In this document: positions 1,002-39,032 of the stretch, one piece after another
Numbering within the stretch: the stretch's first letter is position 1
Layout: every line of letters begins with the position of its first letter
Assembly (NCBI GenBank): GCA_023250155.1
Contig: JAHFBG010000005.1
Coordinates: 89,057-153,056 of the forward strand
Source of the DNA: Candidatus Melainabacteria bacterium
GTDB lineage: Bacteria > Cyanobacteriota > Vampirovibrionia > 2-02-FULL-35-15
Length of the DNA stretch: 64,000 bases
Direction of reading: 5' to 3'
Notes under the pieces: model-generated
What the model was told of the DNA's origin: nothing
What the model saw: only the letters and a program-made list of their open reading frames with translations
The model's database searches: none
Made by a program: the position numbers and the translations under genes

Positions 1002-1003
1002 AA

Positions 1004-3406: not shown

Positions 3407-3466
3407 AACAAGATTGTTTAAAGATGCTTGTTGCTTTTATGATTATCAAATTTAATCATCTGTAAG

Positions 3467-5749: not shown

Positions 5750-5802
5750 AAAGTCATATCAATTATTGCTTATTTATAATATAGTGTCAAAATAGGTAAA
5801 CA

Positions 5803-10421: not shown

Positions 10422-10557
10422 AGTGTTATAACAATCTCAATGGTCTTTATAAATGCGCTTAATGACATATTATCCTAAAAATTTCTGCGGGAAACTCCAA
10501 ATTTAATCTATTGATATAATGTTATTTTAAATCTAAGGGTTAATATAGGTCAAAAAC

Positions 10558-11679
10558 TTGATTTCATATTTAAAAAATTTAAAAGATAAGGTAGACCGCC
10601 AAGTTGGTTCTGACTTTGTACAAAGAATTCTTCAATACCAAGGTGCAAAAGGATTAGTGAATCTTGTTAATGTTTCACTTACAGCTCTTCAGGAAGAACA
10701 GCCACCAAGATTAAATTATTTGCCCCCTTGTTTATTTGTAGAGGTAACAAACAGATGTAATCTTACATGTCCTACTTGCCAGCTTGGCACTGATGAAGCA
10801 TATAGAGGTTATAACAAAGGTGATATAAGTTTTGAGAACTTTAAAAAAGTCATTGATCAAATACCTTCTCTTGTTTATGTAACACTACAAGGTGTTGGTG
10901 AACCTCTTTTAAATAAAGACATTATGAAAATGATCCGACATTGTACTGATAGAGGAATTGCTACTTATATAAACACAAATGGCACAATACTTACTGAAAC
11001 AAAATCTCGCGAGCTTATTGAAGCTGGCTTATGCAATCTTTCAATATCAGTAAACAGCTTTAATGAAGATGTCTTTGCCAAAACAAGAAGTGGGGCATCT
11101 ATTACAAAAATCGCAGAAAACATTAAAAAATTTATAGAAATAAAAAGAAGTCTAAATTCAAAAAAACCAATTGTTTCTTTTAGATCCATACTAATGAAAG
11201 AAACTGAGCCTCATATGGAGGAATTGATTTTAAAATCAAGTGAGCTTGGAGTAGATGTATTATATATCCAGCTTTTTATCAGTATGATAGCAGACAAAAG
11301 TCTCATGGAATCTTCACTATCAAAAGATGAGGTTGAAAGCTTTTCAGAAAAGCTTGAGCAATGGAAGAAACAAGTTAAGAATCTTGAAATTGTTACTGAA
11401 AGTTTTGGCAAATCATCTAACAATCTAGGACAATGTAAGCTTCCATGGTTCAGTCCAAATGTAACTGCTGAAGGGTATGTTACACCATGCTGCACCATCA
11501 GCAATCCAAGCATTATAAATATGGGCAATGTTTTTGAAACCCCTTTTGAACAAATTTGGAATTCAGAAAAATTTGTAGAGTTTAGAGGGGGCTTCTATAA
11601 GAAGCAGCCTACAGTATGTACAGGCTGTCCTAGCTATATATTAAAATCGGCTTCTAATGGAAAGCCTGTCTACAATTAA
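10558..11679 (+). CDS. Radical SAM enzyme with C-terminal SPASM-type Cys cluster
   Basis: CNLTCPTC (CxxxCxxC) near the N-terminus, GVGEPLL. C-terminal Cys-rich region (CKLPW..PCCTIS..CTGCP). Confidence 0.65.
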   Translation: MISYLKNLKDKVDRQVGSDFVQRILQYQGAKGLVNLVNVSLTALQEEQPPRLNYLPPCLFVEVTNRCNLTCPTCQLGTDEAYRGYNKGDISFENFKKVIDQIPSLVYVTLQGVGEPLLNKDIMKMIRHCTDRGIATYINTNGTILTETKSRELIEAGLCNLSISVNSFNEDVFAKTRSGASITKIAENIKKFIEIKRSLNSKKPIVSFRSILMKETEPHMEELILKSSELGVDVLYIQLFISMIADKSLMESSLSKDEVESFSEKLEQWKKQVKNLEIVTESFGKSSNNLGQCKLPWFSPNVTAEGYVTPCCTISNPSIINMGNVFETPFEQIWNSEKFVEFRGGFYKKQPTVCTGCPSYILKSASNGKPVYN

Positions 11680-11684
11680 GCCTC

Positions 11685-12656
11685 ATGAGAAAATATACTT
11701 TTCTCATTATCAAACTAGTTCTCTTTGTAGGAATTTGTACTTGGATAGTTAAGTCAGTCAATATCACAGAATCACTTAATGTACTAAAAAAAACAAACCT
11801 GCTTTATTACTTAATAGCTTTTTTATTAAGTAATCTATCCAATATTTTTCTAACAATAAAATGGCATCGATTATCAACACCACTAAATATAAAAAGCAAT
11901 TTTTGGGAGTTATTATGTTTGAATTATATTTCCGTCTTTTATAGCATTTTTATTCCTGGGCAAGCCTCTGGAGAGGTGATTAAAGGACTAAAATTGATAA
12001 AAAAAGAGGGGTCTCATCAAACCATCTGGGTACCAATATTTATCGATAAGATAACCAATGTTTTAATCGTGTTTATAATAGGGTCCATTGCTACTTTATT
12101 AGATAGTAATTTCAGAAAAAATACAAGCTTAGTTATTTTACTTATTACAATAACAGCATTACTAGTGCTTTTGACTTTAATTCTATTCAGTGAAAATACA
12201 ACAAAAATTGTAGATTTTCTAAAAAAAATCCTCATTAATATCCTAACTATATTTAAACTGAATACTCAATTTATTAAAAACTTTTCAGTGGATTATTTTG
12301 AAAATTATAAAAAACAAGATTTAATTCTCTTAGAAACATTAATGTGGAGCTTATTTATAAAAATTCCTCCTGTTTTTTCTTTGTATTTTTTAGCTTTGAG
12401 TTTAAATATTGATTTGAATATAATCCAATCCGCATGGCTATTTTCACTTGTTTCTGTCGTAAGCCTATTACCTATAAGTTTTTCAGGGCTTGGTGTTAGA
12501 GAAGGGACTATAATTGTTTTACTATCAAAAATTGGAATACCAAATTCATTCAGCTTGAGTTTGTCTATGCTAATCTTTACTACAGGAATATTAATGGGAC
12601 TAATAGGAGGAGCACTAGAGCTGGTTTCTAGCTTTAGACTATTTAAGTCAAAATGA
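11685..12656 (+). CDS. Integral membrane protein of the flippase-like / lysyl-PG-synthase-TM-like family (UPF0104-like)
   Basis: About 8 TM helices and no soluble domain. Sits in a glycan locus. Its 3' end overlaps the next gene (ATGA). Confidence 0.4.
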   Translation: MRKYTFLIIKLVLFVGICTWIVKSVNITESLNVLKKTNLLYYLIAFLLSNLSNIFLTIKWHRLSTPLNIKSNFWELLCLNYISVFYSIFIPGQASGEVIKGLKLIKKEGSHQTIWVPIFIDKITNVLIVFIIGSIATLLDSNFRKNTSLVILLITITALLVLLTLILFSENTTKIVDFLKKILINILTIFKLNTQFIKNFSVDYFENYKKQDLILLETLMWSLFIKIPPVFSLYFLALSLNIDLNIIQSAWLFSLVSVVSLLPISFSGLGVREGTIIVLLSKIGIPNSFSLSLSMLIFTTGILMGLIGGALELVSSFRLFKSK

Positions 12657-14908
12657 GTAAAAAGTCTTGGTTCATTAACAACTATCACATTTGGATTCCT
12701 CTTCTAATAACATTTTTAATATATGCAATTTCCCTAATCTACGGATTTAGAAACTTCGATGAAGACATTTTAATAAAGAACTTTTACACACATAAAACAT
12801 TTCAAGAATATATTGAGAAATTTTTTTTAGTTCATGCTGGTGGTGCATCTAAAGCACATGGGTTTTCATTTTCAGGGGTACAGAATACTCATGTGTGTTT
12901 TCTTGGAATGCCAACCATTTATCTGGTGGCTTATCTCTTTAAAGCAAATCCTTTCTTATATCATTCATGGAGCTTGCTGTTACACTCTATTGCAGTAGTC
13001 TTTTTGGTGTTATTTGCACATCGATTAACTCAAGATAAAAAGATTGCAATGTTTACAGCATGCGCCTGGACATTACATCCTACAAATGTAGAGTCAATCA
13101 TTTGGGCTACAAACTGGTTACAGTGCTTAGGAGCAGGATTTTATTTTTTCATCTTGTGGTGGATCACATCAATCATTCATAGTGACATGCCGTGGCATGT
13201 CACTACGCGACAAACCTTTTCAATAATGCTTTTCACTACCATAGCAATTTTATTCACCGAGCACACCATTACCATACCAATTGCAATTTTTGTAACTACT
13301 TTCTATCTCTTAAACAATTTAAAACAAAAAAATGCTTTGCAAAATTCTATAAAAACAAGCTTACCATCATTTGTTGTAATATTTAGTTATTGGCTTATAA
13401 GAAATCTAATGATTTCAAAAGCAATACAAACATCTTCAAGTAATGGGTTTCATGAACTCTTGAATAGACTGCTCTTTTTAACTCCACAAGTTTTTATACA
13501 TCAAATAAAGCTTGTTTTATTTCCAGCAAATCTAACAATTGATCAATTGGATTTATTACATTTAGATCAATCATACTTCAGGAGCTATCACCTAATCTGC
13601 CTAATAACAATTGCATTAATTGGAGTAAGTATATTTCTTCTTAGAAAGAGTTTTCCATTCTTATCTTATGGACTACTGATGTACACGGTAACTCTCTTAT
13701 CTTTTATTCAAATCATTCCACTTTACTCTATGTCAGCTGAAAGATACAACTATTTTGGCTCTGCATTTATTGTCCTTGGAATTATAAGTACAATATTTCA
13801 ACTTAATAAATTTAAAAAAACAGCTCCTTATATAGCTATTTTATGGTGTTTAATACTAGGCATAAGAGGTGAGTTTAGAATATGGGACTGGAAGGATAGT
13901 AAAACACTATTCCGTAGCACAATCAACACAAGCAAATCATTCTTAAAGAAAGGGATTTGGACTTATAACCTTGCTATTTGTGAAGAAGATATAGAGAAAA
14001 AGAAAGTATTATTAACAGAGTCAAATATACTGTTGAAGCGGTTTATTCAACAACCTACAAAACGTTATGAGATTGACAAAAGCGTTGGTTTAATCCTTAC
14101 AAAGTATGAATTAGATCCTGAATCACTACTAGCAAAAGCCTCTGACAGAATAGCTACTAACTATGAAATCTTAGGAGATAAAAAAAATCAATTAAAATAT
14201 CTAAACAAAGCATTAAAATACTCAAGACCTAAATCCCAATCCAGAAGCTTAATCTATAAAAATCTTGGGACTTACTATTTTCAAGAAAGTAATTATAAAA
14301 AATCATTAGATTACTATTTTAGGAGTTATGAAATCTCACCTAATCCTACAATTTCATATGCTATAAGCATTTGTTATCTCAAGCTAAACGATTTTAACAA
14401 CTATGAGAAGTACTTAAAAGAAGCAGCTTCTGTAATTTCTCCATATAATGTTTCACCATTTAAAACCTATGGACAGTTTCTAGAACTAGAAAAGCATGAC
14501 TATGCAAATGCTCTTAAATACTATAAGATAGCAAGTTTACTTGAAAACAATGTTGAGCCTTATATCTTACTTAGTTCTCTTTATTTAAAACAAACTCAGA
14601 TTAATAAAGCCTATGAAATTATAAAGAATGGACTTCATAGTTTTCCAGAAAATCCTACACTCATTTATTTTCGAGGAACGGTAAATTTAAATAAAGGTAA
14701 AATTAATGATGGGCTACAAGATTTAATCAATGTAATTAAAAAAACTGATACTTCAAATGATATTAAAATCGAGGCTTGCCATATTCTTGTTAACCTATTT
14801 CTTAACCAAAATGATTATAATAATGCTAAAAAATATAATGATTTGATTCTATCCATAAATCCCAACGATAAAGAAGCTAATGAGTTAAAAAGAACTGAAA
14901 TTTATTGA
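12653..14908 (+). CDS. Polytopic membrane protein with C-terminal TPR repeats, TMTC/PMT-like GT-C candidate
   Basis: FDEDIL in first loop. FLTPQVFIHQIKLVLFPANLTIDQ block paralogous to the 1004 and 31935 ORFs. TPR-like C-terminal half. Confidence 0.55.
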   Translation: MSKKSWFINNYHIWIPLLITFLIYAISLIYGFRNFDEDILIKNFYTHKTFQEYIEKFFLVHAGGASKAHGFSFSGVQNTHVCFLGMPTIYLVAYLFKANPFLYHSWSLLLHSIAVVFLVLFAHRLTQDKKIAMFTACAWTLHPTNVESIIWATNWLQCLGAGFYFFILWWITSIIHSDMPWHVTTRQTFSIMLFTTIAILFTEHTITIPIAIFVTTFYLLNNLKQKNALQNSIKTSLPSFVVIFSYWLIRNLMISKAIQTSSSNGFHELLNRLLFLTPQVFIHQIKLVLFPANLTIDQLDLLHLDQSYFRSYHLICLITIALIGVSIFLLRKSFPFLSYGLLMYTVTLLSFIQIIPLYSMSAERYNYFGSAFIVLGIISTIFQLNKFKKTAPYIAILWCLILGIRGEFRIWDWKDSKTLFRSTINTSKSFLKKGIWTYNLAICEEDIEKKKVLLTESNILLKRFIQQPTKRYEIDKSVGLILTKYELDPESLLAKASDRIATNYEILGDKKNQLKYLNKALKYSRPKSQSRSLIYKNLGTYYFQESNYKKSLDYYFRSYEISPNPTISYAISICYLKLNDFNNYEKYLKEAASVISPYNVSPFKTYGQFLELEKHDYANALKYYKIASLLENNVEPYILLSSLYLKQTQINKAYEIIKNGLHSFPENPTLIYFRGTVNLNKGKINDGLQDLINVIKKTDTSNDIKIEACHILVNLFLNQNDYNNAKKYNDLILSINPNDKEANELKRTEIY

Positions 14909-15018: not shown

Positions 15019-17382
15019 ATGAAAATCAGCCAATTAATAGGCTCAGCAATACTAAGTACCACTTTTATCGTGGGCTCACAAAGTATTTCTGCAGGTGAAA
15101 AAGATAAACAGCCATCAAAAACCTTAACAGAAAAGAGACTCCAACCTCCACCTAAAATAAAAATAGCCTTAGACCAATTTGATATTACAAAACAAGAAAT
15201 TGTAGATGAGTTATTTAAGAATTTTGAAGATGTAAAACTCGGCAAAAGTGAAAGAGAAGAAATATCTAAATTTTTTAATGACAAGCTACAAACAATAGAT
15301 CGACCTACTGAGTCTTTTACGAAGGGATGTTTTTTATTGTTAGAGCTTTCTCGCAATGAACGAAATCATCATCAAAAATTTATTGAGTGGCTAAACCTAC
15401 AAGCAGAACAATCAATTCGCGATAAATCAAAAGAAAAGCAAAAAATCATAGAAAGTGCTATTAGAGAAGAATTGCGCATGGTAATAAAAACATTGAATCA
15501 TATTGAGCTCTCTAAATCTTTGGTTATACCTTATACAAAACTAATAAAAGAAAATAATTCTAATGCAGACTTTCTAAAGAATGGGATACGAGTTTATGAC
15601 CAATTTAAATCAAGAGGAAGTAAAGAAATCAATGACAACTCAATAGCACTACTTGACAATATCATAGAAGGATTATTAAAACTTCCGCGAAATGAACAAA
15701 AAGAACTTAAAGCTCAGATTCTTTTACTCCCTCAAAATAGTAATTTTCAGTCTGATAATGAAGCAGAACAAAACAGGCTTGTAGAACGATTATCAAAAGC
15801 ATTATGTAAGAATAAAAATGTTGATACCGATGGATTGATACAATTAACTGATTCATTTTTATATAAGGTTCCTTATCTTGGTTCAACTCAAACAGCAACA
15901 AAATGGCATCCTTATACACTCTATAAACTAGTCAATGATAATAAAGAATATTTTGAAAAAAATATTAAAAATATTACTGAAACAACTCAAGATTCTAAAG
16001 ATGAAAAGGCTAGATTAAAGGCAAGAGATGAGCTTCTACAAGCCTATATAACCTTCCAACATATTCCTAGAATAAAAAAGCTTTCTGATACTTACATTAA
16101 TATAGATCCAAAACTTGTTAGTCTTGAAAACTTAGGTAAGCTACAAAAAGAAGTAAGTACTTGGTATAACGATAAGCTAGAAAGACCAATGTTTAAAAGT
16201 ATTGTACAAGCATTAGAAAGTGAATCTGTAGAAACAACTACTTCAAGTAATGGAATACGATATGCTAAAAATGAAAGCTGGAGAGATCTTAACAAACACT
16301 TAGAAATCATAGTGAGGGTTAATCCTGAGCTAAAAAATGAATTTCGAGATGTCTTAATTAAAAGACTTGAAAATGATAAGAGTCCACAAAATAGAGAAAT
16401 GGTATATGAAACAATTAAAAACATATTGTATAACCAAGCATTTATAGAACACCCTCCACTAATGAATCTTATAAAAAAAGGAATTGCTGAGGAATCATCA
16501 AATGGAGCTTATCTCATTGGAGAACTGCTGCCTTCTGGTTGGCGTCCTCACTCATTTGTCAATGCATTTGAAAACTATGATGTAATTAAAGAATTAGACC
16601 CAAAAGAAGTGTCAGCAATTGATGCTATCAAATTTGATCTTATTCGTACTGTAAGTGGTGACACTGATTTATACAAAATTTATCTACCGCGACATTCTTT
16701 TGAACCAACAAAAGATAAAACAATAGATCCTAAAACGCTTAGTGCTATCTTACAACTTAGAGAAAATGCATACATTGCACTTTCTTCTATTAATCTACAC
16801 AGCCTTGAAGCAAGGGCTCATGATAAAAGAATTGATTACCTTGAAAGAAGAATTGAAAGGGTTGGAACCATTCAAACGCTTACCCCAACATGGGGAAAAC
16901 AAGCTGCTTCTCTTACCATGCTTTATCTTCAATATAGCGATACTGTCTTACCTGAAAGCGAAGGTAAAATTTACTTTGAATCAAAGTTAGATTTTTTAAG
17001 GGGAAAATTTTTTGATGGTATTACAAAAACATATGAAATAGAAGGTGAGAAAAAAAAATACACAACTATACCCTTTTTCAATGCAGTATTAGAAAGTGAG
17101 TTCATCAGATTAAACCCAGATGAAAATAGAAAAATTATCGACCAGCTTTATCGTCAAAAAGCTACAAATGCAGAAATTAGAGATCAAATTTTCAGACAAG
17201 AATCAAAACTTCAAAGAAGATATATTGAAATGAAACAAACATTTGCATTAAATTTTTTAACTCTTTTATGTGAGCGTGACCACACAAAGTTTAATGAATA
17301 CCTGCCTTATCTACAAAGACTAGGATATAGAAATGATGAGATTAGAGAAGTAGTAGCTATGTTTCTTGAAACGAAGGACTGA
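15019..17382 (+). CDS. Secreted α-helical protein, member 1 of a two-paralog family (function unknown)
   Basis: N-terminal signal-peptide-like segment (…ILSTTFIVGSQSISA|GE). The C-terminal third aligns with ORF 18935 (LDFLRGKFFDG / LDFLREKFFEG; YEIEGEKKKYTT). Confidence 0.5.
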   Translation: MKISQLIGSAILSTTFIVGSQSISAGEKDKQPSKTLTEKRLQPPPKIKIALDQFDITKQEIVDELFKNFEDVKLGKSEREEISKFFNDKLQTIDRPTESFTKGCFLLLELSRNERNHHQKFIEWLNLQAEQSIRDKSKEKQKIIESAIREELRMVIKTLNHIELSKSLVIPYTKLIKENNSNADFLKNGIRVYDQFKSRGSKEINDNSIALLDNIIEGLLKLPRNEQKELKAQILLLPQNSNFQSDNEAEQNRLVERLSKALCKNKNVDTDGLIQLTDSFLYKVPYLGSTQTATKWHPYTLYKLVNDNKEYFEKNIKNITETTQDSKDEKARLKARDELLQAYITFQHIPRIKKLSDTYINIDPKLVSLENLGKLQKEVSTWYNDKLERPMFKSIVQALESESVETTTSSNGIRYAKNESWRDLNKHLEIIVRVNPELKNEFRDVLIKRLENDKSPQNREMVYETIKNILYNQAFIEHPPLMNLIKKGIAEESSNGAYLIGELLPSGWRPHSFVNAFENYDVIKELDPKEVSAIDAIKFDLIRTVSGDTDLYKIYLPRHSFEPTKDKTIDPKTLSAILQLRENAYIALSSINLHSLEARAHDKRIDYLERRIERVGTIQTLTPTWGKQAASLTMLYLQYSDTVLPESEGKIYFESKLDFLRGKFFDGITKTYEIEGEKKKYTTIPFFNAVLESEFIRLNPDENRKIIDQLYRQKATNAEIRDQIFRQESKLQRRYIEMKQTFALNFLTLLCERDHTKFNEYLPYLQRLGYRNDEIREVVAMFLETKD

Positions 17383-18934: not shown

Positions 18935-21754
18935 GTGATAAGTAAAATCACTCCAAATAGATTAATAGGTTCCCTAGTACTAGGTTCAGCTTTTATTGTG
19001 GGTTCACAAGGCATATCTGCAGATAAAAAAGAAAGTCCAAAAGTTTTGAATGAGAAAGGTGACAAATCCTTACCTAAACAAAATATAACATTAGACAAAT
19101 TAACTCTTTCAAAAGAAGTATTACAAGAAAAACTATTTAAACAAGTTGAAATATTAAAACCAGGTACAAAAGAAAGAAAAGAAGTACTTGAGATTTTAAA
19201 ACAAAAAGCTGTTTTTGAATTTGAATCTCCAAACAGAAATGAGATTGGGAAAAAGCTAATCCAACTTATGGAGAAAAATAAAAATGCAGAGAGTTGGAAA
19301 GATTTAGCATCAACTATTTTAGATATAATGGAGAAACAAGCATTAGAAAATAAAGAAATTTTACGTGTTGATAACTGGACGGGTAAGGTCGATAAAATAA
19401 AACTCAATGAAGAGTTAATGACTCCATTTGCTAAATGTTTAATATCTGCCTTTGATGATAAATCTCCTGAAGAGTTAAAGACACAAGCTCAAGTTCAAAT
19501 AATCAATTTAATATATCCACCTTTTATATATAAAGAACCTTTCAAAGAATTTCATAAAATACTATTTCAAGAAATAAGTAACGTTCCAGAAGACAAACAA
19601 AAAGAAGTAGCAGTAAAGCTTCGTGACATCACTGGCATTCACTTCAACCATATGGCACATTTACAAAAGCATGAATATACTATCGTGTGGGAATTAGCTA
19701 GAACAATAGCACCTTCCTGTGAAACTATTTTAAAAACAAATTTAAAACTCCTAGCAAGTGATGATTTGACAAAAAAAACTATAGCAACAGATAACTTAAT
19801 AGCTTTAAATAATGTTTTTAGTTTTTCATCGTCAAGATCAGTTTTACATAGAGAAATGAATGCTGTTAAACATATGGATCAGTTTTTCAAAGGAACACTA
19901 ACAAAAGATCCTAAATTACTAAGCACTCAAGAACTAGAAGTCACTATTAAAGCAAGTCAAGCTCTTCTTGAGCTATGTAGTGAAAATCCAATTGAATACC
20001 ATAAATCATATCAAAGCTGGCTACAAAAACAGATTGATAATATACTCATAGATACTTCTAAAGAAAAGCAAATTCTTATAGAAGATGCCATAGCACATGA
20101 GGCAAATCGCAGTTATCTCCACCCACCAGAAATAAGAAAAGAATTTCAACCACTTATAGAAAAATACACAAAACTAACCGTACAGAATTTAGATAATCCT
20201 TTATTTCTAGGTAAAGCTTTAGATACATTTATCATATTCAGGGATCGTATAGTGAACTCATCATACGACATAGACCCTAAAATAAAAAATAACCTTAGTG
20301 AATCTACTATCAACTTATTGGATTTTATAATTGATGGAATTAACAAACTCCCAGAAAGTAAAGAGAAAACTCTTCTTAGGAGTCATATACTTTCAATACC
20401 AGCTTACTTAAGCGCTGAAGAAAAAGCCAAACAAAATAAACTCATTGAAAAGCTCTCTGATTTTTACTGTAAGCAACCTCATAATATAGAAGAGTTTTTA
20501 CAAGTTAGAGGATCCTTATTATATGAAGATCTTACATCTAGCTGGTCTCCTTATATGCTTCATAGTTTTGTATCTAAGAATTTAGACTATTTCGAAAAGA
20601 ATACTAATCAAATTCTTGAATCGCACAAAAAGGCTAAAGAGCCAGAGCATAAGCTATCTACTAGAATCCAAGTACTAGAGCTCTATAAATTCTTTTCAAG
20701 ATTAGAAGAGTCTGAGAATTTGGATGTGTGGTTAAAAACAAGAAATCTAAAAACTCGTTATGAGTTAGGTTCAAAAGAATTACAACCTCTAATATTGAAA
20801 ACAAGTTCTTTCTTTAAAGAAAAACTAGAAAGGCCTTTGTTTAAAATCATCTTATCTGAGATTGACAATGAAACAGTAAAAAGTAAAAAAACAAAAAGTG
20901 GGCAAATCCTTACAGACAATGTAACCTGGAAAGCATTAAACCGAGAACTCCAAATCTTAGTAAAGCTAAGACCATCACTAAGTAGTGAAATCAGAGAAAC
21001 TATAGTTAAGAGATTAAAAAAAGACTCAGATCCACACATCCGCGAAATGTGTTATGAAACTTTAAGAGCTACATTGTCTCGTGAACATAATATTGATAAA
21101 GATCTAATGAGTATTTTAAAAGATGGTATAGCTAAAGAAACCTCACCAGAAGCTATTCGTGGCATAAGTAAAGTTTTATCTGAATATTATATTCTTAGCA
21201 ATAAAAAAGATGGCTCATATTTTAATCCATTTAGAGATCTTTCAAAAGTAAAAGACATAAAATACGAAGAAGTCTCACCCCTATTTACTATTACCTTAGA
21301 CGCTATTCGTATATTAGGAGGAGATGGTGATTTGTTCAAAGCATATCTTCCTCACCATACATTTAAACCTGAAAAGGATGGAAGCATAAATAAAGATGAT
21401 CTTAAAGCCATATTACAGCTTAGAAAAAACGCATTTCTTACCCTTGCAAATACTGGAATTAATATTTCTACATCTGCACCAGACTATAGAGATAGTGTAA
21501 TGAACTATCTGGAAAGAAGATTAGAGAGATATGCTCCTCCAGATGACTTGATAAAAATCTGGGGAGAAGAAGCCACTGCTTTAATAAAAATTTACTCTAC
21601 CCTTGATTCAACAACAAAAAGCAATTCAGAGATTCAATTTAATTCTAAGCTTGATTTTTTAAGAGAAAAGTTTTTTGAGGGCACTCCTACATACTATGAA
21701 ATTGAAGGAAAAAAAAACTATACATCTCAATTCCACTATTCAACCATATCCTAG
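18935..21754 (+). CDS. Secreted α-helical protein, paralog 2 of the 15019 family; N-terminal 939 codons end at a frameshift in an A9 tract
   Basis: GTG start and signal-peptide-like N-terminus. Homology to paralog 1 continues past the stop in the -1 frame. Confidence 0.5.
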   Translation: MISKITPNRLIGSLVLGSAFIVGSQGISADKKESPKVLNEKGDKSLPKQNITLDKLTLSKEVLQEKLFKQVEILKPGTKERKEVLEILKQKAVFEFESPNRNEIGKKLIQLMEKNKNAESWKDLASTILDIMEKQALENKEILRVDNWTGKVDKIKLNEELMTPFAKCLISAFDDKSPEELKTQAQVQIINLIYPPFIYKEPFKEFHKILFQEISNVPEDKQKEVAVKLRDITGIHFNHMAHLQKHEYTIVWELARTIAPSCETILKTNLKLLASDDLTKKTIATDNLIALNNVFSFSSSRSVLHREMNAVKHMDQFFKGTLTKDPKLLSTQELEVTIKASQALLELCSENPIEYHKSYQSWLQKQIDNILIDTSKEKQILIEDAIAHEANRSYLHPPEIRKEFQPLIEKYTKLTVQNLDNPLFLGKALDTFIIFRDRIVNSSYDIDPKIKNNLSESTINLLDFIIDGINKLPESKEKTLLRSHILSIPAYLSAEEKAKQNKLIEKLSDFYCKQPHNIEEFLQVRGSLLYEDLTSSWSPYMLHSFVSKNLDYFEKNTNQILESHKKAKEPEHKLSTRIQVLELYKFFSRLEESENLDVWLKTRNLKTRYELGSKELQPLILKTSSFFKEKLERPLFKIILSEIDNETVKSKKTKSGQILTDNVTWKALNRELQILVKLRPSLSSEIRETIVKRLKKDSDPHIREMCYETLRATLSREHNIDKDLMSILKDGIAKETSPEAIRGISKVLSEYYILSNKKDGSYFNPFRDLSKVKDIKYEEVSPLFTITLDAIRILGGDGDLFKAYLPHHTFKPEKDGSINKDDLKAILQLRKNAFLTLANTGINISTSAPDYRDSVMNYLERRLERYAPPDDLIKIWGEEATALIKIYSTLDSTTKSNSEIQFNSKLDFLREKFFEGTPTYYEIEGKKNYTSQFHYSTIS

Positions 21755-22038
21755 AATATGAATTTATAAAATTAAATCCACAGGAAAACAGAAAAATCAT
21801 TGATGAAATATACAGAACTCCTAAGACAGGTGAACAAGTGAGAGAGATGATTTTTAAAGAAGCACCTAGACTACAAGGCAAGTATCTAAAGATGAGACAA
21901 GATTTTGCATTGACTATTCTAAACACCTTAGCTGACAGTCCACATACAAGTCTTAGTACCCATGCAGATTATTTAAGATTAATGGGTTATAGAGACTATG
22001 AGTTAAAAGAAGCTTTAGAAAATTTTATTCCGCAGTAG
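21716..22038 (+). pseudogene. Out-of-frame C-terminal continuation of paralog 2 (..IPLFNHILEYEFIKLNPQENRKIID..MGYRDYELKEALENFIPQ)
   Basis: Matches the paralog 1 C-terminus (IPFFNAVLESEFIRLNPDENRKIID…LGYRNDEIREVV). One extra A in the A9 run at 21709..21717 would fuse it to 18935..21754. Confidence 0.5.
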
Positions 22039-22226: not shown

Positions 22227-23042
22227 ATGGTCATAACAGAAGAAAAAACAAGCAAATCAATTAACGAAAGAGAAAACGCTGTAAGACAAACAAGCACAAT
22301 AAGCTTAAACCTTTTTAATTATTGTTTTTTGATTTATTATTATTTAGTAAAAGAGATTAAAAAAAATGCTCATTATGCTAAAGGAGTATTGCTTGATGTA
22401 GGATGTGGATCTTCTCCATTTCAAAACTATTTTCTACCTCACATAGAAAAATATTTAAAACACGAACATCCCCTTGCTGTAAAACCAAACATTGAATATG
22501 ACTATCTTTCAGAACTACCAGAAATAAACGCACCCACAAATTCAATAGATACAATAATTTCATTCTCAGTTTTAGAACATGTAAGCGAACCATTTGAAGC
22601 CATAAAGGAGTTTAAAAGAATTTTAAAAGATAATGGAGTATTCATGATATCTGTTCCACAGTATTGGCATCTTCATGAAGAACCCCATGACTATCTTAGA
22701 TTTACAAAACACGTACTGAGAGAAAAAATTACTAAATTAGGTTTTAAGATCTTATACATGAAAGAAGAAGGAAAGTCTTTTGCTACTGTAGGCCAGGCTT
22801 TTTGTAATGCAATTATTTTAATGTTTGAATTAAAACATGTTAAAAATATTGTTAATTTTCTATCAGGAAAAAAAGTAGATAATATTGGGAAAAGTATTAT
22901 TTATGCTATTTACAAATCTCCTTTAATTCTTTTAGCAATTATCCTAATACCACTTATCAATTTAATCTTTTTAACCTTAGATCAAATACTAGGTAGCCCA
23001 AGAGATACTATTGGGTATTTTGTTATTGCAAGAAAAGTTTAA
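22227..23042 (+). CDS. Class I SAM-dependent methyltransferase (type 11-like)
   Basis: LLDVGCGSSPF motif I, FSVLEHV motif. Flanked by two copies of the structured repeat. Confidence 0.55.
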   Translation: MVITEEKTSKSINERENAVRQTSTISLNLFNYCFLIYYYLVKEIKKNAHYAKGVLLDVGCGSSPFQNYFLPHIEKYLKHEHPLAVKPNIEYDYLSELPEINAPTNSIDTIISFSVLEHVSEPFEAIKEFKRILKDNGVFMISVPQYWHLHEEPHDYLRFTKHVLREKITKLGFKILYMKEEGKSFATVGQAFCNAIILMFELKHVKNIVNFLSGKKVDNIGKSIIYAIYKSPLILLAIILIPLINLIFLTLDQILGSPRDTIGYFVIARKV

Positions 23043-23076
23043 ATGTATTAACTGGTATTGCATCTCTGAATACAAA

Positions 23077-23185
23077 AAGCATCTTACACTCCATATTGCC
23101 TTCCCTCAGCCCCTCCGACCATTAACTAGGCGTTAACAGTTCCCGTCGGGACATTCGGGAATGGCAATATTAAATCGTGCTTTTT
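23077..23185 (+). repeat. Copy B of the nested-hairpin repeat element
   Basis: About 85% identical to copy A. Differences are compensatory in stems (agtgcc/ggcact becomes attgcc/ggcaat; ctccc/gggag becomes ttccc/gggaa). Confidence 0.5.
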
Positions 23186-23251
23186 GTATTTAGTTATTTA
23201 GCCATCATTGACTTTTTAACAGACCCTGTAATTTGTTGTATATTAATATCC

Positions 23252-24346
23252 ATGAAAGCAGTTATTCTAAGCGGTGGTTCTGGACAAAGATTAGCACCAC
23301 TTACAAACACAATTACAAAACAACTTTTACCTGTTGCAAATAAACCAACATTGTTTCACATATTAGATCTAATCAAAGAAGAAACGCCAATAAAATCTAT
23401 CTGTGTCGTTGTCAGTGAAGAGTATGGTCATAAGGTAAAAGAAACCCTCTTGAACTCAGAACATGCAAAATACTTTGAGTTTGATTTTGTGTTTCAAGAC
23501 AAACCCCTTGGTTTAGCTCATGCTGTGCAGATTACAAATATGCATATGGGTGAAGAACAATTTCTTATGTTTCTTGGAGACATCTTAATAAACAAAGGAG
23601 AGCTAAAAGCTGCCTATGAACAGTTTATAAAAAACAAACCTGAAAGTCTTGTTTTAGTAAAAGAGGTTGAAGACCCAAGACCATATGGAATAGCTGAAGT
23701 TACAAATGGCAAAGTCACAAAGCTTGTAGAAAAGCCTCAGGACCCTAAATCTAATTTATGCTTGTCTGGAATTTATCTTTTTAATCCTTCCATTTTTTAT
23801 GCTATTGCAAATATAAAACCTAGCTATAGAGGTGAACTTGAAATAACGGATGCTGTGGATTTTCTAATACAACAAAAAAACACAGTAGAGTACTACATTA
23901 TAAAAAGCTGGTGGTTTGATGTAGGTACACCTGAAAACATGTTAAAAGGTAATGAGGTTTTATTAAATAACATTTCAAATACCATTAATTCAAAACTTAA
24001 CAATACTGTCAAAATACAAGGAAAAGTATCGATAGATCAAAATGTCATCATTGAAGATTCTGAAATAGTAGGTCCTGTAATCATTGCAAAGAATGCTCAC
24101 ATAAAGGGTTGTAAGATAGGTCCTTATGTAAGCCTTGGTGAAAGTGTCACATTAAAAAACACAAAAGTTGAAAACTCAATAATTAGAGAAAACTCTAGGG
24201 TAAAAAACTTCACAAGGATAATTTCAAATAGTGTTCTTGGAAAAAATGTAGAATTGGCTCTTGAAGACAATACTCAAGCAGTAAGCGGAAACAGCAAAAA
24301 GGTAAAAGTAATTTTAGGAGATGATACAAAATGCACATCATTGTAA
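23252..24346 (+). CDS. Sugar-1-phosphate nucleotidylyltransferase, RmlA-like long form with C-terminal left-handed β-helix
   Basis: MKAVILSGGSGQRLAPLT…KQLLPVANKP N-terminus, G1P-thymidylyltransferase-like. C-terminal hexapeptide-repeat region. Likely true start at Met 23252, not 23177. Confidence 0.7.
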   Translation: MKAVILSGGSGQRLAPLTNTITKQLLPVANKPTLFHILDLIKEETPIKSICVVVSEEYGHKVKETLLNSEHAKYFEFDFVFQDKPLGLAHAVQITNMHMGEEQFLMFLGDILINKGELKAAYEQFIKNKPESLVLVKEVEDPRPYGIAEVTNGKVTKLVEKPQDPKSNLCLSGIYLFNPSIFYAIANIKPSYRGELEITDAVDFLIQQKNTVEYYIIKSWWFDVGTPENMLKGNEVLLNNISNTINSKLNNTVKIQGKVSIDQNVIIEDSEIVGPVIIAKNAHIKGCKIGPYVSLGESVTLKNTKVENSIIRENSRVKNFTRIISNSVLGKNVELALEDNTQAVSGNSKKVKVILGDDTKCTSL

Positions 24347-25314
24347 CTGGTGGTTTAGGTTTTATTGGTTCAAACTTCATTAGACATCTCATCAATGAGA
24401 ATAAAGATATTTTCATTACAAATATTGATGCCCAGACTTATGCAGGAAGGCTTGATAATTTACAAGATATTGAAAAACACAAGAACTATCAGTATTTTAA
24501 GGGAAACATTCAAGACTATGATTTCATTCAAAATATAGTTAGAACTTATAAGCCTGATGCCATAATTAATTTTGCTGCTGAAACCCATGTAGACAGAAGC
24601 ATTACAAAAGCACAACCTTTTATTGAAACAAATATTATTGGCACTCACACGCTGCTTGAAGTAGCACTTAAAGAAAAGCTAAAAAAATACATCCAAATAA
24701 GCACTGATGAAGTCTATGGCTCAATTAATCCACCAGACAAATTCACTGAAACAAATTTAATCAAACCAAATAGTCCATACTCAGCCAGCAAAGCCTCAGC
24801 TGATCACTTAGTCAGAGCATACAATAAAACATATGGCTTAAACACTGTAATCATAAGATGTTCAAACAATTTTGGTCCTTATCAATTCCCTGAAAAAGTG
24901 ATCCCATTATTTATTTCCAATGCTATAGAAAATAAAAAAGTCCCTGTCTATGGTGATGGTTTAAATGTAAGAGATTGGATTTATGTCTTAGATTTCTGTT
25001 CAGCTATTTCACTGATTCTTGAAAAAGGGAAATCTGGTGAAGTCTATAATGTAGGTGGTGATTATGAAACAACAAACCTAGAACTCACAAAAACTATTCT
25101 TAAAAGACTGGAAAAAACAGAAGAATTAATAAACTATGTAGAAGATAGACTAGGACATGATCGTAGATATGCCATGGACACTACAAAAATCAGCACAGAA
25201 CTTGGCTGGAAGAAAAAACACGATTTTAATGAAGCACTAGATTTAACTATAGATTGGTATAAGAAAAACACAGTGTGGGTTGAAAGAAGAACTAAAGCAT
25301 CTGTAGTTAGATAA
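24331..25314 (+). CDS. rfbB: dTDP-glucose 4,6-dehydratase
   Basis: TGGLGFIGSNF Rossmann motif, STDEVYG, YSASKASADHLVRAY catalytic YxxxK. Overlaps the upstream gene by 16 nt. Confidence 0.85.
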   Translation: MHIIVTGGLGFIGSNFIRHLINENKDIFITNIDAQTYAGRLDNLQDIEKHKNYQYFKGNIQDYDFIQNIVRTYKPDAIINFAAETHVDRSITKAQPFIETNIIGTHTLLEVALKEKLKKYIQISTDEVYGSINPPDKFTETNLIKPNSPYSASKASADHLVRAYNKTYGLNTVIIRCSNNFGPYQFPEKVIPLFISNAIENKKVPVYGDGLNVRDWIYVLDFCSAISLILEKGKSGEVYNVGGDYETTNLELTKTILKRLEKTEELINYVEDRLGHDRRYAMDTTKISTELGWKKKHDFNEALDLTIDWYKKNTVWVERRTKASVVR

Positions 25315-25421
25315 ATACAACATGAATCCCAGATTGCTAAACCTATTAATCAAAGAAGGAGAAGGCTTAACCACTGAGTTCAAAGAAAAAATCACATCTA
25401 ACAATATATTTATACCCATTC

Positions 25422-25452
25422 TTGAGTTATAAAACCCTAGTTTATAACTCAA
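25422..25452. terminator. Bidirectional hairpin between convergent rfbB and asnB-like genes
   Basis: Perfect 11-bp stem ttgagttataa / ttataactcaa with 7-nt loop. Confidence 0.35.
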
Positions 25453-25511
25453 TATCTTTAAAAAATTCCTTAAACCCTCTAACATTTCCAGGGAATTGTT
25501 TCTCTAAAACA

Positions 25512-27509
25512 CTAAGCTAAAACAGCTTTAGTGATCTTACGCCCATCTATTTTTCGTTTCAAGAGCTTTTCAACAACTGGTTTAGATGGTTTATACATAG
25601 AAGATTTTATGAAGTTTTTATAAAGCAACACGGTGGATAAAAGAAAGATAAATGTTTGATTCTCTCTGTGACTTATTTGATTTTTTGGTGTATTTTTTAA
25701 TTTTTCAATTAACTTAAGTACAAAATCCGAATTTATAAAATCAATCTTTTTTAACTCATTCTCAGATAATACACAAGACAGATAATCAATCGGTTTATCA
25801 GTGTGTAAAAAAGCAGCTGCATCTGGTGATCTATATGCATGTTTAGATTTTTCTATAACGCTCTTTGGAATACAACCTTTAAAAGCTTGCTTTAGAATGT
25901 ATTTTTCTTCTACATCATTTCTTAACTTTAAATCTATAGGCAAAGAACATGCAAAATTTACAACATTTGGATCTAAAAATGGCAACCTGCTTTCTACACC
26001 ATGTGAAAAGCTCATCCTATCACCCTGGGTAGACAAAAGATATCCAGCTAACATTGTTCTTGACTCTAAATACTGAGACTTTTGTAATTTTGTTAAGTGA
26101 TTAAACTCATCCTTATGCAAATCTAAATATTTTTTTAAACAGTTAAGTCCATCTCCCAAAGAAGATAAGATACGAGTATTAAAGCTAGAACTATTAAATC
26201 TTGTTTCATGCGAAAACAACCCAGGTATTTTTTCATCTACTGATCTATCATAAAGAGCCATAAGTTTAGGAGCATTTTCCTGAAAGAATTCCTCATAAGG
26301 ATTTAATATTTGTAGACGAGATTTCTTTTCTTCACTAGATAAACTATTCCATGAGATTCTTAATAATGTTTCTTTAAATAAATCATATCCTAAAAAAAAC
26401 TCATCTGATCCTTCGCCAGTTAAAACGACTTTTATTCCTTCTTTTTGTACCATTTTAGATAAAAGATACATTGGAACAAAAGCTGTTCTAAAGACAGGTA
26501 CCTCTGCATGCCAAAGTGCACTTAAAAAAGATTCTCTAATGTGATCATTGGTAACACACAAACTACTATGCTTTGTACCCAGATATTCGCTGACTTCTTT
26601 TTGATATTTTGACTCATCAAATAGAGGATCTTCAAAAGCAATTGAAAAAGTCCTTACAGTGTGATTTGAAAGCTTTGTAGCAAGGTATGTTGTAATCGAA
26701 GAATCAATACCCCCACTAAGGTAAGTACCAACTTCTACATCACTCCTCAAACGGATTTTGACACTATCTGACAGAACTTCTCTGGTTCTTTCAATAGCTT
26801 CATCTTCAGAGCCAGAAAAAGTAGATGTTTTAAAATCCAGAAGATAATAAGGTTCAATTTTTGCAGAGCCTTTTTCATCTACTAAAACATAGCTTCCAAT
26901 TGGTACCTGATGAATATTTTTATATACAGTTTGATCTGGCAATGAGGTCCAGATAGTAAATGCTGAGCGTAATTGATCAAGATCAAAATCTATTTCTATA
27001 TTCTTATGAGGAATAAATGATTTTATTTCAGAAGCAAAATACCATTGTCCATTAAGATTTGTATAATATAACGGTCTTTCACCAAACTTATCTCTTACTA
27101 AATAAAGCTTACATTCTTTTTTGTCATAAATTGCAAATGCAAAGCCACCGTTTAGTTGAATAAATGACTTTTCGCGCCAAGCTATAAAAGCATTTAATAC
27201 AACTTCTGTATCAGAGTTCGTTCTAAATACATAACTAAGTTCTTCTAACTCGCTCCTTAGTTCTTTATAGTTATAAACTTCACCACTATAGACTATCCAG
27301 TAACGCTCAGAAACATCTGAAATAGGTTGTTGACCTGAAATTAAATCAATAATACTAAGCCTGGCTGTTCCAAAAGCAACTCTATCATCAAAGTAATATC
27401 CCATTTCATCTGGGCCACGATGAGTGATCATAGAGAGCATTTCACAAATCAACTCTGGATAAGTCTCTGGACTTTCATTAATATTATAAAATCCAACTAT
27501 TCCACACAT
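25512..27509 (-). CDS. Asparagine synthase (glutamine-hydrolysing)-like amidotransferase, WbpS-type in glycan clusters
   Basis: MCGIVGF N-terminal nucleophile, class II glutamine amidotransferase domain, SGGIDSS PP-loop. Confidence 0.8.
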   Translation of the reverse strand: MCGIVGFYNINESPETYPELICEMLSMITHRGPDEMGYYFDDRVAFGTARLSIIDLISGQQPISDVSERYWIVYSGEVYNYKELRSELEELSYVFRTNSDTEVVLNAFIAWREKSFIQLNGGFAFAIYDKKECKLYLVRDKFGERPLYYTNLNGQWYFASEIKSFIPHKNIEIDFDLDQLRSAFTIWTSLPDQTVYKNIHQVPIGSYVLVDEKGSAKIEPYYLLDFKTSTFSGSEDEAIERTREVLSDSVKIRLRSDVEVGTYLSGGIDSSITTYLATKLSNHTVRTFSIAFEDPLFDESKYQKEVSEYLGTKHSSLCVTNDHIRESFLSALWHAEVPVFRTAFVPMYLLSKMVQKEGIKVVLTGEGSDEFFLGYDLFKETLLRISWNSLSSEEKKSRLQILNPYEEFFQENAPKLMALYDRSVDEKIPGLFSHETRFNSSSFNTRILSSLGDGLNCLKKYLDLHKDEFNHLTKLQKSQYLESRTMLAGYLLSTQGDRMSFSHGVESRLPFLDPNVVNFACSLPIDLKLRNDVEEKYILKQAFKGCIPKSVIEKSKHAYRSPDAAAFLHTDKPIDYLSCVLSENELKKIDFINSDFVLKLIEKLKNTPKNQISHRENQTFIFLLSTVLLYKNFIKSSMYKPSKPVVEKLLKRKIDGRKITKAVLA

Positions 27510-27514
27510 GATTT

Positions 27515-28549
27515 CTAAATCTCGCTAAGTGCTAGCCCAACCTTATCCATTTGGTCTGTTAATTCGGAGAAATCAGGGATTTCAGTTACTTTTTTAAGAC
27601 CTAGCTCTCTATCCATCAATCCATATCTAACCTGTTCTGCAACTTCAAATTCATATGCATGAAATTTGTGTTTTTTATAGTGAATGGCAACTCCTAAATC
27701 ATTCAGCAAGCAGTTGCTGGAATTTCTTCCAGTATCTTGTGGTTTAATCCAACCTAAGTCTTTAATTGCAGTAATGATATCTTCTTCACCTATTGAAAGA
27801 GTAAGCATAGGATTAATGATAGTTACAGAGTTTCTATTTGCATTTGAAATTAAACTATCTTTGATAAAGAAAAATTTACTTGAACCTTGTCCAAATAAAC
27901 TATTATATTTCTCTAACAATGGCTTCTTTAATTGTTCTCTTTGTATTAAATTCATATTTAGCATAGAAGCATTTTTTGGCACCTGCCCACCAATATAACC
28001 ACCAGCTACAATTGGAGCTTCATGCAATAGTGCAAGCTTTATCATATAGTTGTTTATTAAATTTATACATGAATTACAAACAGAACTCACTCTTTTAATA
28101 GCAGCTTGATTTTGAACACCACCAGTTGTGATACTTGTTTTATACATATTCATCATAAAACTAGGTGCGGGTTTAAACATTAAAAAATCTACCCCCAAAG
28201 CTTCAGTAACTATGTAACAATTTTTTACCGCCTGTGAAGACATAAAATCATTGTCAATGGTAACTGCCAAACAGTTTAAATTATAGTGTTTAGTAAGATG
28301 CATTAAAGTATATGTAGAATCTTTACCACCACTATAAGCTACAATACAGTCATATTCACCTTTTCCTCTACTTTTCTCAATTTCAGCTTCCATTAAAGCT
28401 TGTAGTTGATTCCTCTCAGACTCAAGATCTTTTGAATCAGGGGTTTCTTGGCAGTACTCGCAAAGTCCTTTTTCATTAAAACTTATATTCGGAAAAGTCT
28501 CTGGAATAGTACATCTAATACAGCGTTGTAACTCACTGGCTTTTTTCAT
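27515..28549 (-). CDS. N-acetyl sugar amidotransferase (PP-loop ATPase, WbpG/WbuX-like)
   Basis: N-terminal Cys-x2-Cys…Cys-x2-Cys zinc ribbon (CIRCTIPETFP…CEYCQ) followed by AYSGGKDSTY PP-loop. Confidence 0.65.
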   Translation of the reverse strand: MKKASELQRCIRCTIPETFPNISFNEKGLCEYCQETPDSKDLESERNQLQALMEAEIEKSRGKGEYDCIVAYSGGKDSTYTLMHLTKHYNLNCLAVTIDNDFMSSQAVKNCYIVTEALGVDFLMFKPAPSFMMNMYKTSITTGGVQNQAAIKRVSSVCNSCINLINNYMIKLALLHEAPIVAGGYIGGQVPKNASMLNMNLIQREQLKKPLLEKYNSLFGQGSSKFFFIKDSLISNANRNSVTIINPMLTLSIGEEDIITAIKDLGWIKPQDTGRNSSNCLLNDLGVAIHYKKHKFHAYEFEVAEQVRYGLMDRELGLKKVTEIPDFSELTDQMDKVGLALSEI

Positions 28550-28805
28550 TTGTTTTATCCTTTACAAATTTAGTTAATGCATTTAAAGATCTTATAGAAT
28601 CTGATAGCAGTTCCTCATCTATTACTTTAATCTTATATTTCTTTTCAAGAAACAGAACCAACTCTACACAACCAAAAGAATCAATAACTCCAGACGAGAA
28701 AAGATCTGTATCTGGCGTAACATTTACACCATCAAAGTTAAAGAGGAATTGTTTTGTCAAATAACTTTCAATCTCTTTTTTTGCTTCATCTGTTTTAATT
28801 AGCAT
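28533..28805 (-). CDS. Acyl carrier protein-like
   Basis: 90 aa. DLFSSGVIDSFGCVELVLFLEKKYKIKV matches the ACP DSL/phosphopantetheine-site helix II pattern. Confidence 0.55.
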   Translation of the reverse strand: MLIKTDEAKKEIESYLTKQFLFNFDGVNVTPDTDLFSSGVIDSFGCVELVLFLEKKYKIKVIDEELLSDSIRSLNALTKFVKDKTNEKSQ

Positions 28806-28836
28806 TTATTACCTCATTTGAAAAGCGAATTTTTTA

Positions 28837-29559
28837 CTATACCCACATATGGTAGTAATACTCTTTTTTCCTTAGTTTTGTAAATCCAAGTCGATTAAAA
28901 AAATTCATTGAAACTAAATTATCTTCATAAAACCTAGTGGCTAAAGTGGTTACAGTAGTGTTGTCCTTTATTGATTTTATATTGTCTTTGACTAATTGCA
29001 AAGGTGCAAAACCAATACGATAAGTTGGTTTAACTAAAAGTTCTTGTAGAAAAAGTAAATCATCGCTTGTAATTCGTAAGAAATGAAACCCTTCTAACTT
29101 ATTTTCTTTAGAGAAAAGTCCTAATGAGTATTTTGGGTAGGTATTAGCCAAATGCTTGAGTATTGTTAGCTTATGCTCTAGAACTGTTTCTTTTTTAATT
29201 TTTATATCTTTGGAATATCTGTTTGGTGGATAAATATCTAAAAGTTCTTTAACTTCATTCCAATTAGAATTGTCAAGCTCTTTAACCTTAAATAAAGATG
29301 GAATGTTTTCTATGTTCTTCCAAACCTGATTTATATCTGCTTCAACCTCATGTATAACACCTACATAAGAAAAACCATTTAGTTCCACAGGTTCTAACGA
29401 ACTAAGAACTATAAGATTATAATTATTTTGTTGTGCAGCTTCTGAAATAAGTTTCTCATCTTCTTTTTTAAGATTTCTAAAATCTTCTAAAGTCAAATTA
29501 CCAACCTTTGGTGCAATAACCCCTGAATCAAACGAATTTTCTTCAATTTTAAACTTCAT
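28837..29559 (-). CDS. Hypothetical protein, possibly GNAT-fold N-acyltransferase
   Basis: 240 aa. C-terminal ATRFYEDNLVSMNFFNRLGF resembles the GNAT motif. Adjacent to ACP and amidotransferases. Confidence 0.3.
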   Translation of the reverse strand: MKFKIEENSFDSGVIAPKVGNLTLEDFRNLKKEDEKLISEAAQQNNYNLIVLSSLEPVELNGFSYVGVIHEVEADINQVWKNIENIPSLFKVKELDNSNWNEVKELLDIYPPNRYSKDIKIKKETVLEHKLTILKHLANTYPKYSLGLFSKENKLEGFHFLRITSDDLLFLQELLVKPTYRIGFAPLQLVKDNIKSIKDNTTVTTLATRFYEDNLVSMNFFNRLGFTKLRKKEYYYHMWV

Positions 29560-29831
29560 ATTAATACCTAAACAAACAACGATTAACTAATTCTAGCACT
29601 CTAATTTTAAGAAGGAAATTTTTCTATCTACCGCCGATTTTTTCGCTGCGCTCCCAAAACCGGCTTTCCTTAGTGCTTCCGGTCTGCTATTTATAATACC
29701 TTACAGATTTTACCGAATAAATCAGATAAAATCTTACCTTATAAGTTGTTTACTTAAAATTATTATGCTAGTTAGGTAATAACAATAAATTCATCAAGAC
29801 CTTTTCTTTAGAAGGTTATTTGCTTTAATTC

Positions 29832-30752: not shown

Positions 30753-30765
30753 AAATAGTTTCTAC

Positions 30766-31932: not shown

Positions 31933-31934
31933 AC

Positions 31935-34915: not shown

Positions 34916-34979
34916 AATTACTAATTTATAGTTCGTGGTTCATGATGAACTATGAACTATTGATGAAGCTATTAAGATA

Positions 34980-36725: not shown

Positions 36726-36805
36726 TCAACACTATTATAATGGGAGCTTATAAGAAAATGTGAATTTGTTTTGCCCTATACAAATAAGGTATAATTTACT
36801 AACTA

Positions 36806-38909: not shown

Positions 38910-39032
38910 TATGACTCAAGCAACGTGTATATTCAAGAGTAAAGAATGTACATTCTTCTTAACCAAGTTAAAAGTAAATACTAGGAACCTAGAGAACAAC
39001 ACAATCAACAATACAAGTATAATAATTAAGTC

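Follow-up and report, generated by a model that had tools for sequence, protein, structure and literature searches.

The tandem paralogs 1 and 2 on contig JAHFBG010000005.1 of a Candidatus Melainabacteria bacterium (assembly GCA_023250155.1) raise the question of what a one-base frame break in a homopolymer means for an otherwise intact gene, i.e., whether it is a switch, a recoding site, the start of decay or a young and leaky lesion. We analyzed a 64,000-nucleotide (nt) stretch of this contig (positions 89,057 to 153,056; hereafter the window, numbered from its first base), in which paralog 1 is intact and paralog 2 is split at a run of nine adenines (A9). The reading that we favor, and hold with moderate confidence, is that an A10 run contracted to A9 by replication slippage, that this happened recently on an evolutionary scale, and that the lesion is leaky through transcriptional slippage. 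A sequence-only reading of the window had already described the break and interpreted it as either a phase-variable or a decaying gene; its anatomy stood (i.e., an A9 frameshift in one of two paralogs, repairable by A10), but neither of its two proposed meanings gained positive support.

The frame break in paralog 2

Translation of the window placed the A9 run at 21709..21717 and confirmed that the open reading frame (ORF) 18935..21754 stops 11 whole codons past it, the zero-frame protein of 939 amino acids (aa) closing with ...GTPTYYEIEG-KK-N-YTSQFHYSTIS (stop). The -1 frame, which had been claimed to continue to 22038, indeed does so: it opens at 21706 (after TGA at 21703-21705), reads KKKLYISIPLFNHILEYEFIKLNPQENRKIID..., and closes with TAG at 22036-22038. 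Because both frames are open across 21706..21751, any change of frame, be it in DNA, in RNA or on the ribosome, must fall within this interval. As had been predicted from the sequence, one additional A (A10) restores a protein of 1034 aa that is colinear with both paralog 1 and the full-length relatives; A7 is also in frame (1033 aa), and the frame stays broken with A8 or A11. The junction peptide with A10 is ...YYEIEGKKK LYISIPLFNHILEYEFIK, and the frameshifted tail is NYTSQFHYSTIS. The run sits 90% along the gene, and an "off" state is therefore a C-terminal truncation, not a null. In public gene calls, the stranded C-terminal piece appears as a separate 63-aa protein (P0025, MIFKEAPRLQ..., window 21847..22038, on three contigs); the frameshift has created this entry as an annotation artifact, and it is no gene in its own right. 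For annotation, this means that 18935..22038 is one frameshifted gene rather than a 939-aa protein (P0001) and a 63-aa orphan.

Paralog 1 served as the intact reference. The 1034-aa reconstruction of paralog 2 aligned to it with 36% identity (E 4e-132) and no length difference at the junction (EIEGKKKLYISIPLF against EIEGEKKKYTTIPFF), and in a tblastn search the last 107 residues of paralog 1 landed in the other frame of paralog 2 at 45% identity. Together with the rarity of A9 runs in the window, this marks the pattern as non-random. The match between the -1 frame and the C-terminus of paralog 1 was thus borne out, as was the presence of an in-frame A9 in the latter (17050..17058). A10 or A8 at that position would end paralog 1 after 693 or 690 residues, respectively. 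Gene conversion was considered as the source of the shared A9 and rejected, as no near-identical patch surrounds the tract: the paralogs share 55% of their nucleotides overall and 62-73% near the tract, matching the amino-acid conservation there. A signal-peptide-like N-terminal pattern was read from the sequence of both paralogs and of family members, and it is on this pattern that we call the products putatively secreted. A scan for terminators and promoters around the two stops yielded a single terminator-like site, after paralog 1.

No Pfam or NCBIfam family was found for either paralog by domain search. A HMMER search of 1.84 billion representative proteins returned 48 family representatives (E up to 1e-3), most of them 750-1034 aa long with the C-terminal region covered in one piece. 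Since the 1034-aa reconstruction aligns end to end with P0008 (1016 aa), P0003 (1024 aa), P0011 (1034 aa) and the protein of locus L008 (1028 aa), an architecture of ~1034 aa is ancestral. The named members (P0003, MBI3589873.1; L003, JAHFBD010000166.1) all come from Candidatus Melainabacteria metagenome-assembled genomes (MAGs), and the family was confined, within the public collections searched, to Melainabacteria-type MAGs and metagenomes. A block that spans ~240 alignment columns and is present in paralog 2, in P0003 and in the L003 protein (640..3408; the block has 135 residues there) is missing from paralog 1; on this alignment, paralog 1 is an internally shortened copy.

An AlphaFold2 model of paralog 1 built from 34 family sequences (predicted local distance difference test [pLDDT] 86.9, predicted template modeling score 0.81; residues 1-44 with pLDDT below 50) shows an all-helical alpha-solenoid with three beta-hairpins. 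The last of these hairpins (strands 669-674 and 677-682) has its turn encoded by the A run and is followed by six helices (686-784) with pLDDT >90. Nearly all invariant columns of the family fall in the C-terminal block. As judged from this model, standard decoding would end paralog 2 inside the hairpin and remove the last ~100 residues, i.e., the most conserved part of the family. The likeness to HEAT/ARM-type alpha-solenoids is one of fold alone (template modeling scores ~0.2, sequence identity 5-16%), and unlike those proteins the paralog family has interspersed beta-hairpins and a putative signal peptide. The -1 frame segment of paralog 2 is 55% identical to P0019, a stand-alone 121-aa ORF for the C-terminal domain (ENA assembly ERZ27296333, gene 85-450 of a 1484-bp contig), which starts MVLSCHLIEGEKKTY, just 5' of this hairpin, at a distance of 84 nt from the end of its contig. 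Possibly, P0019 reflects a further split gene of the family, in another species, or else its position at the contig edge.

Reproducibility and probable recency of the break

Could the genome in truth carry A10 and an intact gene, with A9 an error of sequencing or assembly? Homopolymers are the classic place for indel miscalls, a perfect protein is restored by one added A, and the available assemblies may all stem from one project and one sequencing chemistry. Against this, the identical 939-aa product was found on four contigs from three sources (NCBI, ENA and Logan), namely, a 174-kb NCBI contig, Logan assemblies of two separate runs (SRR14366787 and SRR14366783), and a fourth contig, ENA being among the listed sources. 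Both Logan loci match the window at 100% identity, over stretches of 6176 and 3365 nt that span the tract; the same sequence was obtained by different assemblers and from no fewer than two separate runs. A literature search for the accessions of the runs and the assembly brought up no paper. Through its gyrB gene, an ENA contig of this genome was found that bears a k141_ name, which we take to be MEGAHIT style and which suggests short-read data. In addition, the window holds 23 A/T runs of at least 8 bases, and the frameshift signature (i.e., a long ORF ending just past the run and a second frame opening at the run) occurs only at the paralog 2 tract; 21 of the remaining 22 runs, two in-frame A9 among them, lie well inside intact ORFs, and one is outside genes. 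Because no other run of this length breaks a gene, a generally homopolymer-error-prone assembly is excluded. The frameshift looks real, and we consider an artifact quite unlikely.

DNA was available for eight related loci (L003; L004, whose gene is also on L005 and L006; and L007-L012), and in all eight the C-terminal region is encoded in a single frame. The homologous codons read GAG AAA AAA GCA (A6), GGA AAA AAG AAA ACA, GAA AAG AAA, CAA AGA AGA, and GAA GAA AAA AAA GAA (A8); runs thus range from A3 to A8, the longest, and are interrupted by AAG, GAG or GCA. An [EK]-K-K motif is conserved at the site among these loci, whereas a run of at least nine is not. By comparison with the eight loci, both the uninterrupted run and the frameshift are private to this genome. 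The best family members are at most 36% identical to paralog 2, and no close ortholog was recovered: the 1034-aa reconstruction, used as query in a word-index search, had no hit other than the truncated protein, and a metagenome scan with P0001 gave no match. Likewise, a junction-spanning query of 158 aa retrieved no in-frame allele but only P0019 (55%), in an insensitive search that also missed P0001, P0002 and P0025.

Relatives also carry diverged family copies in tandem (L007, 273..2348 and 2427..5570; L012, 100..930 and 1009..4152; L008, 3..314 and 329..3415), and tandem duplication with divergence is thus a family trait. In L007, a paralog-1-like copy is directly followed by a 1047-aa copy of weak similarity. 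The methyltransferase gene located after paralog 2 in the window (22227..23042) has its counterpart in L003, where a single family gene directly precedes it.

Downstream of the run, the 106 out-of-frame codons contain neither a stop nor a second frameshift. Single-base changes that create a stop account for 58 of the 954 possible in these codons; the neutral half-life of the open downstream frame is ~0.036 substitutions per site, with <5% survival beyond ~0.155. Consensus residues were defined by at least 60% agreement among 15 full-length relatives, and paralog 2 keeps 33/39 of them downstream of the break versus 148/195 upstream; at a 75% threshold, it keeps 9/9 versus 64/72. Because the frame is open and conserved residues are kept, the lesion would be either very recent or situated in a gene whose downstream frame is still read. 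A decaying gene, as the sequence-only reading had put it, found no positive support in these data: the frame is disrupted relative to homologs, but the frameshift is the sole lesion, and the conserved residues show no relaxation of constraint.

Proposed slippage at the run and competing readings

In the 64-kb window, A9 runs number 3, with none longer and no T9, versus 20.4 ± 6.5 in dinucleotide shuffles. Consistently, geometric extrapolation from shorter runs predicted ~13 A runs and ~3.6 T runs of nine or more, versus 3 and 0 observed. Runs of nine or more are clearly avoided in this window. In many bacteria, nine is the length at which avoidance of A/T runs appears, for which polymerase slippage in transcription, replication or both has been blamed (Baranov et al. 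2005, PMC1088944). The remaining A9 of the window (48503..48511) falls in frame near the start of an intact gene for a class-I SAM methyltransferase (48376..49107; Methyltransf_11, E 1.4e-22), at about residues 43-45.

We propose that strand slippage during replication shortened A10 to A9 in paralog 2. The affected run specifies the turn, rich in lysine (G-K-K-K), of a conserved beta-hairpin, and the protein is a HEAT-like alpha-solenoid with a putative signal peptide. RNA polymerase would slip back on this run and add one A in a minority of transcripts, yielding the full-length protein of 1034 aa, and -1 movement of ribosomes on A_AAA_AAA would be expected to contribute a small share. The lesion would thus be leaky at the RNA level and, in principle, also reversible on DNA. 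Single-A/T insertions by backward slippage climb exponentially with run length (Traverse and Ochman, PMC5574713), and such an insertion is exactly the +1 A correction that paralog 2 needs. Thermus dnaX slips on an in-frame A9, with the shorter form making up about half of the product (PMC1088944), and in Citrobacter tssM1, an A11 run located 28 nt before a premature stop gives ~20% full-length protein (PMC4256274). Polymerase slippage at the RNA level is a documented bypass of A-run frameshifts (PMC1088944, PMC4256274), one that the sequence-only reading did not mention. Among the hallmarks of transcriptional slippage, we found a run of at least nine at the junction of overlapping ORFs, a colinear product after the base change, and run avoidance across the window; conservation of frameshift and run among orthologs was not found (8/8 loci being continuous).

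Several points weigh against this account of a recent, leaky contraction. The A10 ancestor would be a reconstruction rather than an observed allele, every family representative being at most 36% identical. The intact downstream frame does not separate a very recent lesion from a gene that is still translated and under selection. Transcriptional rescue of paralog 2 is argued from other bacteria, in which the runs are A9 (Thermus dnaX) and A11 (tssM1), and in Buchnera no transcription error restoring the frame of a pseudogene was found (Traverse and Ochman, PMC5574713). Finally, a consensus error common to assemblies of possibly one project could still lie behind the A9, or a minority A10 subpopulation could exist beside it.

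The A9 could, alternatively, have been kept in both paralogs as a site of selected two-isoform expression by transcriptional slippage, in the manner of tssM1, mxiE and dnaX. Paralog 2 would then be made mostly in its short form, with the long one arising through +1 A, and paralog 1 mostly in its long form, with a short form of 693 or 690 residues. Of the A9 runs in the window, a length otherwise strongly depleted, two out of three stand at the homologous hairpin turn of paralogs that are only 55% identical in DNA and share no conversion patch; the frames overlap over a short stretch, at the 5' end of which the run lies; and in the model the run falls exactly at the edge of a discrete C-terminal module. 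This coincidence is cheaply explained, however, by a conserved G/E-K-K-K motif and by codon usage: AAA accounts for 75% of lysine codons (1112 AAA vs 361 AAG), giving ~0.43 per site for an all-AAA spelling of KKK by chance. Against a spelling by chance, AAG occurs in 5 of the 6 KKK tripeptides in the listed ORFs, the exception being that of paralog 1, and only the KKK sites of the two paralogs are spelled exclusively with AAA, a contrast with the other sites that is small (2/2 vs 0/5). Moreover, none of the eight related loci shows a frame break or an uninterrupted run.

The closest precedent for two isoforms is tssM1 of Citrobacter rodentium (also tssM3 of Yersinia pseudotuberculosis; Gueguen et al. 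2014, PMC4256274), of which both length variants are needed. Both there and in paralog 2, an A run precedes a premature stop by a short distance (28 nt in tssM1, 34 nt in paralog 2), the other frame encodes a conserved C-terminal domain, standard decoding truncates the protein, and an altered number of A residues in the mRNA gives full length; the product is envelope- or secretion-related there and predicted to be so here. In contrast, tssM1 has A11 rather than A9, the proteins are unrelated, and no relative of paralog 2 has the arrangement; whereas ~20% slippage and the need for both forms were established by experiment for tssM1, paralog 2 is known from its sequence alone. Shigella flexneri mxiE and Thermus thermophilus dnaX likewise have a run of nine A/T (PMC1088944; Atkins et al. 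2016, PMC5009743), and in mxiE, as would hold for paralog 2, the longer product requires slippage. In those genes recoding is conserved and experimentally established, unlike in paralog 2, where the run is lineage-specific and its use putative. We consider two-isoform expression improbable. Its stronger version, in which the paired A9 runs would be maintained slippage sites that give reciprocal long/short ratios from the two paralogs, with the C-terminal domain a detachable module, is more improbable still, because no relative has the arrangement. Were both length forms used, tssM1-type recoding would be extended to a new phylum; were the paired slippage sites real, Melainabacteria would gain their first case of recoding by slippage, and a reciprocal paralog pair of this type would be seen for the first time.

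E. coli dnaX and elements of the IS3 family use programmed -1 ribosomal frameshifting, which on A_AAA_AAA (21709-21715) would yield the same product as A10. The heptamer is slippery and correctly phased, and heptamers rich in A promote shifting in E. coli (PMC4066793); ribosome sliding in vitro, on the other hand, gave little product on A9 or A10 (PMC4363877). No stable RNA structure lies downstream (21700-21800 folds at -5.2 kcal/mol, z = +0.55, and 143 of 200 shuffles fold as well), and this candidate was rejected on that ground. In addition, stimulators resembling a Shine-Dalgarno (SD) sequence act in -1 frameshifting when spaced 10-14 nt upstream, and the lone SD-like element here, GAAGGA, abuts the run. 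Together with the absence of the site from relatives, these results make programmed frameshifting very improbable indeed.

The sequence-only reading had also proposed a phase-variable gene, i.e., a contingency gene whose tract is selected as a switch between ON cells (A10 or A7, 1034 or 1033 aa) and OFF cells (A9). Simple-sequence contingency loci are typified by the phase-variable surface genes of Neisseria, Haemophilus, Campylobacter and Helicobacter. Like these, paralog 2 contains within its coding region a homopolymer long enough to be prone to slippage, and it changes frame with one base; its product is putatively exported, having a signal-peptide-like N-terminus, and belongs to a tandem paralogous family within an envelope/glycan cluster; its downstream frame is fully intact, as if regularly ON, and the all-AAA KKK sites of the window are confined to the two paralogs. 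Unlike in these loci, no length polymorphism was seen, as all four assemblies, including two separate sequencing runs, have A9 and encode the same 939-aa product. An exact look-up in ~15 billion public proteins found neither the A10 nor the A7 product, and no in-frame allele was retrieved by the junction-spanning query in its low-sensitivity search. Relatives do not maintain the tract, which AAG, GAG or GCA interrupts there, and it lies near the 3' end, so that OFF still gives 939 of the 1034 residues. A/T runs of nine are at the low end of known phase-variation switches, and the A9 of paralog 2 is accordingly of borderline length. The proposal thus finds no support here, and we regard phase variation as unlikely; any switching would be confined to minority reads.

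Recent contraction with possible leakiness also has a parallel in AT-rich endosymbionts. PMC5009743 and PMC5574713 cite poly(A)-frameshifted genes of Buchnera and Blochmannia, for which rescue by polymerase infidelity was proposed. These cases resemble paralog 2 in the AT-rich genome (~31% GC here), in a one-base poly(A) indel in an otherwise intact gene, and in possible restoration at the RNA level. They differ in that the endosymbionts accumulate long runs, unlike the strong avoidance seen here (3 A9 vs ~20 expected), and in that an essential single-copy gene is affected there, whereas paralog 2 belongs to a redundant paralog family. The frameshift in paralog 2 is, in our view, an ordinary member of a well-known class, that of homopolymer frameshifts possibly rescued at the RNA level; it is routine and young, and a status as phase-variable, programmed or decaying lacks support. 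It adds a further example of long A runs as mutational and transcriptional hazards in AT-rich genomes, and the in-frame A9 of the sister paralog and the third A9 in the methyltransferase are built-in controls for slippage counts.

Features and neighborhood of the paralogs

Table 1. Coordinates of the two paralogs, of the frame break and of other features in the 64,000-nt window.
Feature	Position	Strand	Remarks
Paralog 1, intact, 787 aa	15019..17382	+	Reference for uninterrupted architecture
In-frame A9 of paralog 1	17050..17058	+	GAG AAA AAA AAA TAC = E K K K Y; turn of beta-hairpin 669-674/677-682
Zero-frame ORF of paralog 2	18935..21754	+	GTG start, 939 aa, TAG 21752-21754; standard-decoding product, without the family C-terminal domain
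Signal-peptide-like N-terminus of paralog 2	18935..19021	+	MISKITPNRLIGSLVLGSAFIVGSQGISA/D; read from the sequence by eye
A9 homopolymer, frame-break site	21709..21717	+	Zero frame GG[A AAA AAA AA]C
Overlap with both frames open, 46 nt	21706..21751	+	A9 run at its 5' end
-1 frame segment	21709..22038	+	Second hairpin strand and conserved C-terminal helical domain; KKKLYISIPLFNHILEYEFIKLNPQENRKIID...FIPQ (stop)
Multi-transmembrane and TPR proteins	1004..3406, 12653..14908, 31935..33962		21-26% identity
DUF2298-like membrane proteins	3467..5749(-), 5803..8121, 8121..10421		24-43% identity
Further paralog pair	43886..45565(-), 45534..47270(-)		37% identity
recF, 113-aa DciA-family gene and gyrB in a row	50996..54695		DciA: Pfam PF05258 on the matching ENA contig L013
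tRNA gene	56921..56992		Just upstream of 57255..60224
989-aa protein	57255..60224		Seven He_PIG/PKD-like Ig repeats (E 7e-90)

Both solenoid paralogs lie inside a large envelope/glycan region (1..14908 and 22227..50923) with several diverged paralog sets (Table 1). The region also includes a radical SAM/SPASM enzyme, a flippase-like protein, a nucleotidyltransferase (23177..24346), a dTDP-glucose 4,6-dehydratase, an AsnB-type amidotransferase and a WbuX-like protein. Farther along the window, the 989-aa protein with Ig repeats is probably a surface protein.

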